Assembly: GCA_043814765.1 (NCBI GenBank)
Contig: JBDRJQ010000029.1
Span: 1 to 64,000 of the forward strand
Length of the DNA stretch: 64,000 bases
Direction: 5' to 3'
Source: Nanobdellota archaeon
GTDB lineage: Archaea > Aenigmatarchaeota > Aenigmatarchaeia > QMZP01
Positions 4,947 through 7,900 of the stretch are shown piece by piece. The position numbers are program-made. Each line of letters opens with the position of its first letter. The stretch's first letter is position 1.

Positions 4947-7900
4947 TGAGAAGATACGTGCGGCGACGCAAGACTTATTCCTGACGCTTTGAGATAATCC
5001 AACCATGGAAACGTGGCTAACCATTTAAGCCTGTGGAGTATCGTCATGGTGAGAAGCAGGTGAAGCTGGGAACGGCTCCGCAAGGAGTTTGGATAAATCT
5101 TAGAGCCAGTGAAAAGGGAATGAGTAAGGATTCTTCTTAACCGTACCGAGATCCGATACTGGTGTCCCTCGCTGAGAAGGCGAAGGTGTGTTAGGAGAAA
5201 TCAGTCTAGGGAATTCGGCAAAATAGCCCCGTAACTTCGGAAGAAGGGGTGCCTATTGCTCTAATTTAATTAGAAACAGTAGGTTGCAATAACAAGGGGA
5301 GTCCAACTGTTTAACAAAAACTTAGGGGACTGCTAGTCGGAAACGATTTGTATAGTCCCTGAGGCCTGCCCAGTGCCAGTCGGTTAAATTCGGGTACAAC
5401 CGGATGAAGCCCTGGTAAACGGCGGCGGTAACTCTGACCGTCTTAGTTGGTGGTCAACAAGTGATGTAGACTATCTAGGATATAGGTAGCGTAATCCCTT
5501 GCCGTTTAATTAACGGCCCGCATGAACGGCTTAATGAGATTCCCACTGTCCCAGACTGATGCCTAGTGAACTTAATTTCCTGCGCATATTCAGGAGTCCT
5601 CCAGTGGGACGAGAAGACCCCGTAGATCTTTACTACAGCCTGTTGTTGCGATATGGTGACGATTGTATAGTGTAGGTGGGAGCGATGCGGTCATGGCGAG
5701 AGCTATGGCTAAGGCGCCGATGTAACACCACCCTTTTGTTATCATATTGCTTACCCTTTAAGGGGACATCAACTGGTGGGTAGTTTGACTGGGGCGGTAC
5801 ACCCTTGACATCTTATCAAGGGTGCCCTAAGATTTCCTCATCGAGGTCAGAAATCTCGAGAAGAGTGTAAGGGCAAAAGGAAGTCTGACAGGAAACTTGA
5901 CAACAAGGTTTCCTGCCGCGAAAGCGTGGCCTAACGATCCCCTGTGCCTCATTAATTGGAGGCCAGGTCTGACAGAAAAGTTACCTCGGGGATAATGGAG
6001 TTGTGGCGCGCGAGAGTCCACACTTCGTTTCTCGATCCACTAAAATAAAGTATATTGTCTTTTGAGACATAGCGCTAGCTGTGTTGATGAAAGGAGATGT
6101 ATAACCAGGAATGGAGAAATGAAAGGTCAAATCGACCGCGTTCATTGCTTCTCCGCCGTCGGCTCGGCTCTTCCTGGACGTGCAGCAGCGTCCAAGGGTG
6201 GGGGTGTTCACCCATTAAAGAGCCACGTTAGCTGGGTTAAATACGTTGCGAGACAGTATGGTCTATATCTACTGGAGGTGTTGGTTACCTGAAGGGAAGA
6301 TACAATCAGTACGAAAGGAACATTGTGTCGTGGTCACTAGTGTACCGGTTGTGTGATTGCAGTGCCGGGTAGCTATACCATAGCGGATAAACGCTGAAGG
6401 CATTCGAAAGCTTGGTCAGTTGAACAAGCTGTCGGTCTATCTAAGCGTGAAGCCGCCCCTGAAAAGAGGTAACCGTTGTTCGACCTGGTAGGCGACTATC
6501 GGTAAGAACAGGAAGGTCCTGTAGACGACAGGGTTAATGGAATCGGGGTGTACGTGCTAAGGTCACGAGGCATTCAGCCCACGATACCCAAACACCTGAC
6601 TGGTCCTTTGTTAAAAGGAGTAACTTGCCTAAACCTATTTTTTTCAAAATTGGTTTGGCTTAGCCACAGCTTTAATAGTATATACTAAAAGGGATATAAA
6701 ATAAAAAAGCGGGACTATTCAAATAGTCCACCTAAGCATTGACAACAAATCACGCTCAATTAAATCTTTTTAAACCCCTCAAATAACATTTCTATAAGCG
6801 AGTCGGTTCGGATGATTCCGCTGCGTTCTGGTCTGCAACGAGCTAACGCGGTGAGGAAGCTCTGCCCACTCAAAAGAATTGATGGCATATGCCGTCTGTA
6901 TGTAGTGCACTGCCGAGAGGCAGAGGCTGAGAAGTCTGCATCAGGCGCAGAGAAATACTGCTTCCTTGGAGTAATGAAGCAAAGGTTAACAAGGCAACTT
7001 AGTTAACTATGCAGAACGTCGAATGGGATAGTAGGTGAGATTCCTGATGATGTATGAGTGCAAGCCGTGAGGCGCTTAGACAAATATCATCACCTCGTTC
7101 ATGGTGACAAGCCGTGCGAGATGACAAAAGGCAGGCTACGACCGACACGCTTACCATTTTTAAACCTTGAAAACTAAATGATACTATGTCACAAAAAAAG
7201 ATGCAAATGCCGCAGTCTACTGCGGGACTTATAAGGTATTTCGATGAGTCAAAAGAATCTATAAAGATAAAACCAGAGCACATTATAATATTTTCTACAA
7301 TCGTAATAGCACTAGAGGTAATTCTCCGTTTAATGTTTTGATTTTTTAACCATAAAACCAAATTCTAATTATGAGTTTTACTATTAAGTTAGGCCCAGCT
7401 GGTTCTCCAGGAAAAAGCACGCTAGAAGGCATTCCCATGATTAAAGAAATGGGATTGCACACAATGGAAGTTCAGTTTGTTCGTGGCGTTAAAATGACAA
7501 ACGACTTAGCTAAGAAGTGCGGTGACAAAGCAAAGGAGCTTGGCATTGATTTGAGTGTGCATGCCCCATATTACATAAACCTCACTTCTGAGGAGAAAGA
7601 TAAGAGAAAGGCAAGCGTTAAACGCATTCTAGATTCTTGTGAAAGAGCGCATTATTTAGGAGCAAAGTACGTAACGTTCCATCCAGCATACTATGGAAAG
7701 TACAAGAAAGAAGATGTTTTTGATGCAGTAAAAAAATCAATTCTTGATATGAAAGGTGTGATTAAGAAGAATGGTTGGGAAACAGAGCTCGCTCCCGAAA
7801 CAACTGGCAGAGTGAAACAGTTTGGTGATATTGATGAAAGTTTAAGGATGATGAAAGAAACAGGCTGTTTTCTTGTTATAGATTTTGCACATCTTTTTGC

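Follow-up and report, generated by a model that had tools for sequence, protein, structure and literature searches.

The sarcin-ricin loop and its described variants

In 23S rRNA, the sarcin-ricin loop (SRL; helix 95, E. coli 2653-2667; consensus AGUACGAGAGGA[A/C]C) contains a stretch, 2654-2665, that has been termed universally conserved (PMC11912913) and has been described as conserved to 90% or more across all domains, its sequence even serving as a filter for the admission of rRNA to databases (PMC4574749). The loop has been defined as G-N2660-R2661-A2662, with residue 2661 making contacts via N7 and O1P, and viable loops are reported to follow the rule GNRA plus Y2658:N2663 (PMC4176186). 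Among the translational GTPases, SelB touches the 2'-OH of G2661 with His61 (PMC5311926), while the bases of A2660 and G2661 are described as contacting His20 of EF-G and joining a hydrogen-bond network (reviewed in PMC6562825). E. coli cells containing only A2660C/G2661A ribosomes were reported to grow normally at 32-42 C and to be cold-sensitive at 30 C, without a significant change in EF-G GTPase activity (Kudrin et al., 2018, PMC5829649).

The SRL is also the target of several toxins. The cut made by alpha-sarcin lies on the 3' side of G2661, and the ricin A chain is said to have GAGA as its major recognition element (PMC6562825). In prokaryotes, cleavage of the SRL has been reported for two PIN-domain toxins (PMC5175351) and for SRLase1, a polymorphic toxin family that cleaves between A2662 and G2663, has homologues in many bacterial phyla as well as in archaeal genomes, and is described as owing its specificity to EF-Tu and the ribosome context, not to the loop sequence alone (bioRxiv 10.64898/2026.09.18.752725). 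The literature searched contained no experiment with a GAAA loop as a toxin or enzyme substrate and no biochemistry of a ribosome carrying the single change G2661A (a 2661 variant may be listed in the mutant table of PMC4176186), and no paper on natural variation of the loop was apparent from titles and the opening lines of abstracts.

A GAAA tetraloop in the single 23S rRNA gene

The analysed DNA is a 64,000-nt stretch (the window) of contig JBDRJQ010000029.1 (179.6 kb) from the Nanobdellota archaeon GCA_043814765.1, a member of the Aenigmatarchaeota. Its rRNA features are collected in Table 1. The SRL 14-mer, AGUACGAAAGGAAC/AGTACGAAAGGAAC, is aligned by Infernal with the RF02540 consensus AGUACGAGAGGAAC at the top posterior probability, and the equivalent of E. 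coli 2661 is an A at 6315, so that the tetraloop reads G6313 A6314 A6315 A6316 instead of GAGA. Sequence and alignment therefore bear out the exchange of G2661 for A described in the genome-wide survey's note, whose E. coli numbering agrees with the numbering of 2661 and 1400 used here, counted from the aligned consensus.

All remaining positions of the SRL are canonical. The loop occupies the same domain VI site near the 3' end of the 23S rRNA (about 2745-2765 of 2987 RF02540 positions) and the same helix as the canonical loop. The bulged-G/loop-E motif is identical to the consensus (AGUA at 6308-6311 and GAA at 6318-6320), C6312 and G6317, corresponding to the C2658:G2663 pair, close the GNRA tetraloop, and A2660 and A2662 are retained. 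In the Rfam consensus structure, the eight base pairs of helix 95 are formed between 6299-6306 and 6322-6329, and the RNA fold of 6298-6330 yields -6.9 kcal/mol (z -2.04). The GAAA loop of the window is thus a sequence variant of the SRL motif and no separate motif, differing from the canonical loop at position 2661 only. The E. coli mutant (PMC5829649) likewise combines A2661 with a GNRA loop; it is, however, a laboratory double mutant with the loop GCAA, whereas the change in the window is natural and single and leaves A2660 untouched.

Table 1. rRNA features of the window (plus strand; positions count from the first nucleotide of the window).
Feature	Position	Strand	Basis
16S rRNA gene, 3' part, truncated at the start of the window and split by insertions	1..1402	+	cmscan RF01959, model 934-1478, 290.6 bits
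16S decoding-site strand ACACACUGCCCGUCA, U1273 in place of C1400	1267..1281	+	alignment; pattern match
23S rRNA gene, sole copy of the genome	3459..6611	+	cmscan RF02540, model 1-2987, 2502.6 bits
Helix 95, 8-bp stem around the SRL	6299..6329	+	Rfam consensus structure; RNA fold
SRL 14-mer AGUACGAAAGGAAC (E. coli 2654-2667)	6308..6321	+	sequence; alignment to AGUACGAGAGGAAC
GAAA tetraloop, A6315 replacing the near-universal G2661	6313..6316	+	sequence, alignment

Distribution of the GAAA loop in Aenigmatarchaeota

A pattern search recovered a GAAA SRL in 211 of 371 genomes of the phylum, among them 73 of 98 high-quality genomes, and in 114 of 170 genera. All 27 inspected loci lie in a 23S context. 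In the 211 genomes, the loop is often on a long contig or in a single-contig genome (e.g., G244:C1 and G249:C1). The GAGA pattern gave eight matches, of which four (L034-L037) were dropped as chance matches outside rRNA. This leaves GAGA in a true 23S context in 4 of 371 genomes. Three of these 23S copies (L006, L033, and L038) were rejected as foreign, since the tree and BLAST group them with other phyla; they are situated on contigs of 4.5-7.8 kb, and their bins contain a GAAA copy as well. The sole native-looking GAGA 23S found in the phylum belongs to G041 of family f14, a family in which one of four genomes contains a 23S. The tree (79 fragments, about 850 columns, quick search, midpoint-rooted, the phylum being paraphyletic at its base) was used solely for placing the four GAGA contigs and not for counting gains. 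Excluded beforehand were L002, which duplicates the window, the non-rRNA matches L021 and L034-L037, and L067, L121, and L150, which have bacterial labels. G2661A is consequently a nearly fixed trait of Aenigmatarchaeota, which largely upholds the survey's view of a change fixed throughout the phylum.

In principle, such a variant could stem from faulty assembly or binning, or from an rRNA gene in decay. The genome itself is fragmented (859,335 b in 39 contigs, 88.2% complete), and foreign rRNA contigs do occur in bins of the phylum, as the three contigs above and the five extra 16S copies in the G273 bin illustrate. The window's 23S, however, is full length and high-scoring on a long contig, and a single LSU match and a single SRL match in the genome indicate that this gene is no spare or decaying copy. 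As A2661 was moreover seen in all 211 genomes, from independent assemblies, an artefact is close to refuted.

Recurrence of the GAAA loop in other archaea and in bacteria

The survey's note had regarded the loop as a natural exception to one of the most conserved RNA sequences, with its presence in other archaeal phyla still to be checked. This check was run by scanning species-representative genomes with one pattern over 17 of 64 parts of the collection, and uniqueness did not survive it. The scan yielded at least 120 GAAA loops, and 120 of 120 proved to be genuine SRLs, of which 70 are bacterial-type and 50 archaeal-type. By NCBI label, they belong to nine or more archaeal phyla and roughly a dozen bacterial ones. 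The total is estimated at about 460 stored stretches in some 185,000 species genomes, corresponding to about 0.25% of species.

These loops share the 12-nt core AGUACGAAAGGA with the window and lie in a genuine 23S context, though the bacterial ones end in GGACC, unlike that of the window, and fixation reaches different depths, in some cases a genus and in others a class. The loop is near-fixed in Aminicenantia (38 GAAA and 2 GAGA, with a match in 40 of 81 genomes). In Zymomonas, a cultured genus, it is fixed (8/8 rRNA copies in 3 of 4 genomes), and the family relatives have GAGA in 19 of 19 cases. In Arenicellales, a clade carries GAAA (9 of 36 genomes), and 27 genomes carry GAGA. Further bacterial examples are found in Cloacimonadales and uncultured Clostridia, and archaeal ones in Woesearchaeota/Nanoarchaeia, Bathyarchaeia, and Desulfurococcales/Sulfolobales MAGs. 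A DPANN phylum neighboring Aenigmatarchaeota, that of genome G371, includes 13 GAAA and 78 GAGA genomes (91 in total). G2661, part of a loop routinely described as universally conserved, has thus been replaced by A in an archaeal phylum, a bacterial class, and a cultured genus. Such lineages, a culturable bacterium among them, offer natural material for studying how this base influences accuracy, the activation of GTPases, and the sensitivity to toxins that act on the loop.

Position 1400 of the 16S rRNA

The decoding-site strand of the window's 16S rRNA reads ACACACTGCCCGTCA, compared with ..CACCGcCCGUCA in the consensus, and the alignment places a U at 1273 where C1400 is expected. Strand 1394-1408 thereby departs from the conserved ACACACCGCCCGUCA, while ACACACUGCCCGUCA is otherwise canonical. 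Alignment and pattern match agree with the survey on this exchange, and its occurrence throughout the order was confirmed as well, as all 31 genomes of the order with a 16S match have U1400 by pattern match. In the rest of the phylum, the same pattern gave a mixed picture (8 U and 58 C). C1400U represents a second GC-to-AT change, separate from G2661A, that became fixed in the window's order.

The identical base change is known from E. coli, where it is reported to have arisen in orthogonal 30S subunits as a mutation that relieves toxicity, with mRNA-bound occupancy falling from 52% to 21% (Volkov et al., 2022, PMC8986856). What emerged there as a relieving mutation is the native state throughout the window's order, and native U1400 is of interest similar to that of A2661, given that the change is described as strongly hypomorphic in the orthogonal system (PMC8986856). 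A coupling of G2661A and C1400U was rejected for the bacterial GAAA genomes checked, which keep C1400. It may exist in DPANN: in the phylum of G371, U1400 is present in 7 of 13 GAAA genomes versus 3 of 78 GAGA genomes.

Translational GTPase residues that contact the loop

The survey's note had further proposed that aEF1A and aEF2 co-evolve with the loop. EF-G was compared between GAAA and GAGA genomes in three independent bacterial GAAA lineages. The compared genomes do not differ at His20, Asp22, His87, Glu456, Arg660, or Gln664, nor at Ser661 except for a Thr in a second Aminicenantia copy. The unchanged contacts despite G2661A set a natural limit on the need of translational GTPases for this base. 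In aEF1A, the P-loop and the catalytic His motifs are intact. In aEF2 of the phylum, however, the equivalent of EF-G Arg660, a residue of the SRL network, is Lys in 33 of 33 genomes, whereas the archaeal aEF2 chains 5h7j and 6q2d have Arg (two alignments). This exchange does not follow the loop, as beyond the phylum Arg is retained in 7 of 7 archaea with GAAA and Lys is also found in G041 with its native-looking GAGA 23S. A search for co-variation with GAAA at the contact residues of EF-G and aEF2 revealed no general rule. The factors might conceivably have co-evolved with A2661, but these comparisons do not bear out the proposal.

A related scenario is that A2661 has been compensated by a lineage-specific change in a GTPase or a neighboring ribosomal protein so that reversion would now be harmful, in DPANN perhaps as part of a joint remodelling with U1400. 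The persistence of A across deep divergence (211 against 1 in the phylum, 38 against 2 in Aminicenantia), the Lys in aEF2, and the skew of U1400 in the phylum of G371 are compatible with it. The distribution of aEF2 Lys and Arg and the bacterial lineages, with seven unchanged contact residues and C1400, argue against it. Moreover, the co-occurrence of GAAA and U1400 may reflect one or two clades of non-independent kin, and each change is a transition from GC to AT in genomes that are rich in AT (37.4% GC in the present one). We regard this scenario as unlikely, though not negligible.

A GNRA-preserving substitution and its possible selection

We favor the reading that G2661A is a recurrent, GNRA-preserving substitution in the working SRL of the only 23S, held by selection in the phylum, and assign it a probability of roughly 0.6. 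The G-to-A transition at 2661 exchanges one GNRA tetraloop (GAGA) for another (GAAA) and leaves the bulged-G motif, the C2658:G2663 pair, A2660, and A2662 intact. The groups of 2661 that appear in published contacts, namely phosphate, 2'-OH, and N7, are common to A and G, and the GAAA loop should consequently still dock with and activate aEF1A, aEF2, and aIF5B as usual. Though rare, GAAA has arisen and gone to fixation on many occasions, in archaea as well as in bacteria. In the phylum, A2661 arose early and was retained as the rRNA around it diverged to some 77% identity, which fits selection holding A in this lineage.

The substitution is not freely neutral, as the rarity of GAAA shows strong selection for G2661 in most lineages. 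The contacts of the A2660 and G2661 bases with His20 of EF-G described in the review cited above (PMC6562825) make some functional effect plausible, and variants may, for example, tune GTPase activation or lack the guanine used by sarcin-type nucleases. The near-absent reversion in the phylum and in Aminicenantia suggests a lineage-specific dependence on A, for which no partner was found among the EF-G/aEF2 contact residues compared. The Lys in aEF2, a difference at one contact residue, speaks against a purely conservative exchange.

Toxins could provide the selective force if A2661 blunts SRL-directed enzymes, i.e., G-specific sarcin-type nucleases, ricin-type N-glycosidases, or the prokaryotic SRL nucleases of microbial conflict. 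Such nucleases exist in prokaryotes (bioRxiv 10.64898/2026.09.18.752725; PMC5175351), G2661 and GAGA are reported to matter to alpha-sarcin cleavage and ricin A chain recognition (PMC6562825), and recurrence in unrelated lineages is typical of escape mutations, so that a GAAA loop might confer resistance. Still, SRLase1 as described depends on a context beyond the loop sequence, the searched literature offers no GAAA-loop experiment in support, and the GAAA lineages, among them DPANN archaea, Aminicenantia of sediments, Arenicellales of the sea, and the fermenter Zymomonas, have no obvious ecology in common. Ricin and sarcin are plant and fungal toxins that these organisms are unlikely to encounter. 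Toxin escape is hence a doubtful explanation of A2661. Distinctly improbable is a more far-reaching version, according to which A2661 is a selected and entrenched state and not tolerated drift, its carriers having retuned the factor-binding site (aEF2 Arg-to-Lys in Aenigmatarchaeota, U1400 in DPANN) and gained protection from loop-directed toxins of microbial conflict. If true, the loop that is most conserved in rRNA would have been contested as a target again and again, and Zymomonas would offer a cultured model.

Insertions in the rRNA genes

ARAGORN identified no tRNA in the rRNA spacer of the window. A purely speculative, very improbable alternative views the SRL as an insertion site of mobile introns, with A2661 altering the recognition sequence of a homing endonuclease. 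An insertion within the loop was seen neither in the 120 GAAA loci nor in the inspected loci of the phylum, to which the contiguous search pattern may contribute, and no endonuclease with an SRL target was identified. The idea draws on an insertion in the window's 16S rRNA gene, which aligns in two pieces (1-239 and 1100-1402); this insertion is LAGLIDADG-bearing, indicating that such elements are active in the lineage.

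The sarcin-ricin loop and its gene

The window carries a full-length archaeal 23S rRNA gene, in which the stretch AGTACGAAAGGAAC is aligned by Infernal, with top posterior probability, to the sarcin-ricin loop (SRL, helix 95), where the family consensus reads AGUACGAGAGGAAC. The sole mismatch is an A instead of G at the third tetraloop position, the equivalent of E. coli G2661 as counted by us from the alignment to the consensus. The bulged-G motif, the loop-closing C:G pair, A2660 and A2662 are canonical, and the flanks pair as the expected 8-bp helix. Sequence and alignment thus agree with the GAAA loop reported in the genome-wide survey's note, coordinates included. 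In the 39 contigs of this genome (859,335 bases, 88.2% complete, 1.2% contaminated), a single LSU rRNA match and a single loop match were found, both on the 179.6-kb contig, and no second, canonical 23S copy able to supply the function was detected.

Sarcin-type enzymes prefer guanine, the G2661C exchange alters translation accuracy in E. coli, and tetraloop mutants were reportedly studied by Glück, Endo and Wool. Published accounts describe the SRL as universally conserved (PMC11912913) or as showing conservation of at least 90% across all domains, with one database admitting only entries that contain the 14-mer with up to 4 mismatches (PMC4574749). The loop is given as G-N2660-R2661-A2662, nucleotide 2661 interacting through its N7 and phosphate (PMC4176186), and the 2'-OH of G2661 is contacted by His61 of SelB (PMC5311926). 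E. coli with A2660C/G2661A ribosomes only is reported to grow normally at 32-42 °C, with cold sensitivity at 30 °C and no significant change in EF-G GTPase activity (PMC5829649); prokaryotic toxins that cleave the SRL have also been described (bioRxiv 10.64898/2026.09.18.752725; PMC5175351). A literature search covering few subscription-journal papers yielded no description of natural G2661A. The GAAA loop presumably still folds as a GNRA tetraloop and functions normally.

Coordinates of the features (window positions unless a contig is named)
Feature	Position	Strand	Details
16S rRNA insertion	240-1099		about 860 nt, 32.8% GC; between model positions 1175 and 1244
First ORF of the insertion	366-614	same	
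Second ORF of the insertion	684-1082	same	Pfam LAGLIDADG_3, E 1.1e-09
Lineage-specific 16S insertion	~1164-1237		74 nt, relative to Rfam model
16S rRNA decoding strand (3' part of gene in window)			ACACACUGCCCGUCA; consensus ...CACCGCCCGUCA; alignment
Equivalent of C1400	1273		U
16S-23S spacer, weak Rfam tRNA match	2375-2431		34.1 bits, 57 nt
23S rRNA, archaeal, full length	3459-6611		Infernal, 2502.6 bits, model 1-2987
SRL stretch	6308-6321		GAAA tetraloop
Equivalent of E. coli G2661	6315		A
Lineage-specific 23S 3'-domain insertion	6404-6443		40 nt, relative to Rfam model
Lineage-specific 23S 3'-domain insertion	6476-6510		~35 nt, relative to Rfam model
aEF2 of the window's genome (L159)	G000:C20:45428-47629	minus	P-loop His and catalytic His kept

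Distribution within Aenigmatarchaeota

Of the phylum's 371 species genomes, 211 contain the identical stretch; they include 73 of the 98 genomes of high quality, come from 114 of 170 genera and represent most families having more than one genome. A pattern leaving three loop bases unconstrained matched 231 of 371 genomes; the remainder mostly gave no match, as expected of draft assemblies without rRNA. All loop counts are exact pattern matches, which miss loops with other changes, and their denominators include many genomes without assembled rRNA. A 23S context was found at all 27 GAAA loci inspected. Over the compared fragment of about 0.8 kb, two of the inspected loci are identical to records labelled Aenigmarchaeota/Aenigmatarchaeota (L029 to L097, L030 to L132), which links the phylum to this name.

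The canonical GAGA pattern was matched in 8 of the 371 genomes. Four matches (L034-L037) lie outside rRNA and were rejected as SRLs, the other four (L006, L024, L033 and L038) being true 23S loops. In the tree and by best BLAST hits, L006 clusters with Thermoproteota and Bathyarchaeota sequences, and L033 and L038 with Woesearchaeota/Nanobdellota-type sequences. The contigs carrying these three loops measure 4.5-7.8 kb and belong to bins that also contain a GAAA copy, two of these bins being oversized (about 2 Mb); given the foreign grouping, the short contigs and the GAAA copy, they were taken as mis-binned rather than native. L024, from genome G041 of family f14, has best hits solely within the phylum, is placed among its members in the tree, and is probably a native GAGA loop. 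No other f14 genome gave a loop match, and GAAA was found in 0 of 4 genomes of this family; the GAGA of G041 may be either retained from an ancestor or a reversion. The proposed phylum-wide G2661A is therefore borne out as near-fixation, with one probable native exception. Since the base is constant while the flanking rRNA has diverged (77% identity to the nearest sampled relative), A2661 would appear to be maintained by selection in this phylum.

Recurrence outside the phylum

G2661A also recurs elsewhere. A scan of species-representative genomes for GAGACAG followed by a gap and the GAAA loop gave at least 120 stretches, with about 460 estimated for the whole collection (17 of 64 parts read). 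Stem-forming flanks are present in all 120 stretches listed and the conserved upstream motif in 108, the other 12 being truncated at the locus end or having an upstream insertion. By type, 70 stretches are bacterial (GGACC) and 50 archaeal (GGAAC). Among the matches listed, whose group names are record titles rather than a phylogeny built here, the archaeal labels comprise Aenigmatarchaeota, Woesearchaeota, Nanobdellota, Undinarchaeota, Nanohaloarchaea, one Micrarchaeota-labelled MAG, Bathyarchaeota, Desulfurococcales, Sulfolobales, Methanofastidiosia, Theionarchaea and Poseidoniales, and bacterial ones include Clostridia, Aminicenantes, Arenicellales, Cloacimonadales, Acidobacteriota, Chloroherpeton and Zymomonas. 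The lineage surveys show that fixation of G2661A has occurred many times and at depths ranging from genus to phylum, the deepest case seen being that of the window's phylum. GAAA is thus not a singular natural exception. Because GAAA is rare, we infer that G2661 is under selection in most other lineages.

Loop types in lineage surveys (samples drawn by the tool, not whole groups; unmatched genomes gave no loop match)
Lineage	Searched	Loop match	GAAA	GAGA
Aminicenantia class	81	40	38	2
Zymomonas genus	4	3	all 8 copies	none
Zymomonas family, including G375	31	20	G375 only	19
Arenicellales	61	36	9	27
DPANN phylum of G371 (Woesearchaeota-labelled)	121	91	13	78

Position 1400 of the 16S rRNA

Comparison of the decoding strand with the consensus gives U for C1400, as the survey's note had stated with correct coordinates. 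In orthogonal E. coli 30S subunits, C1400U is described as lowering mRNA-bound occupancy from 52% to 21% (PMC8986856). A pattern allowing C or U matched 97 of 201 sampled genomes of the phylum; within the window's order, every one of the 31 genomes with a match has U1400, confirming its reported spread there, and one oversized bin of this order also has five C1400 copies on short contigs. The rest of the phylum has U in 8 genomes and C in 58.

Of 151 genomes sampled from the neighbouring phylum of G371, 11 have U1400, and its co-occurrence with GAAA is striking (7 of 13 GAAA versus 3 of 78 GAGA genomes, counts that include kin and are not independent). This association may reflect shared ancestry, coupling or mutational bias in the form of AT-biased drift; each exchange is a GC-to-AT transition, and the GC content of the window's genome is 37.4%. 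C1400 is kept in GAAA Zymomonas, Aminicenantia and Arenicellales: five genomes were searched, and the four with a match have C in all 8 copies.

Translation factors facing the loop

EF-G was compared between GAAA Zymomonas (G375), Arenicellales (G373) and Aminicenantia (G372, two copies) and the GAGA relatives G381 and G456, using Thermus numbering with the offset checked by the AHIDAGK, PGHVDF, GMGELH and LRSxTQG motifs. The residues examined are those to which the review PMC6562825 assigns a contact with A2660/G2661 or a role in GTP hydrolysis. His20, Asp22, His87, Glu456, Arg660 and Gln664 are identical throughout, and Ser661 is replaced, by Thr, solely in the second Aminicenantia copy; the EF-G contacts are thus unchanged in independent bacterial GAAA cases.

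The aEF2 of the window's genome has Lys at the Arg660 equivalent, where two archaeal aEF2 chains with alignments (5h7j, 6q2d) have Arg. Lys is found in all 33 phylum genomes examined (L159, L171-L205), the domain-V motif facing the SRL reading LKSxT versus [LI]RSxT in the other sequences compared; Arg is conserved in bacterial EF-G and the other archaeal aEF2 sequences compared. Co-evolution of aEF2 with the loop had been suggested, but Lys is also present in G041 with its GAGA loop and Arg is retained in 7 of 7 GAAA archaea of two other phyla. Lys is therefore a signature of the phylum, and G2661A does not need it. In four genomes (G047:C5, G082:C12, G015:C54 and G638:C18), aEF2 reading frames span 1212-1268 aa, compared with about 730 aa elsewhere, and probably contain inteins.

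Insertions, spacer and binning

The larger 16S insertion splits the gene; it is probably an rRNA intron whose homing endonuclease is split or decaying. ARAGORN found no tRNA in window positions 1380-3480, which include the weak spacer match. Five archaeal-type 23S loci (L082, L092, L123, L131 and L134) have non-rRNA sequence immediately upstream of the conserved GAGACAG, suggesting that the SRL is preceded, at a distance of about 60 nt, by an intron or insertion. Binning problems are evident for L131 (NZCP01000004.1), an archaeal-type 23S in a record labelled Candidatus Woesebacteria, and for three GGAAC-type loops inside bacterial-labelled bins (L067, L121 and L150). Five additional 16S pieces, all with C1400, are present in the G273 bin (1.9 Mb), and a foreign 23S in the G007 bin (2.0 Mb).
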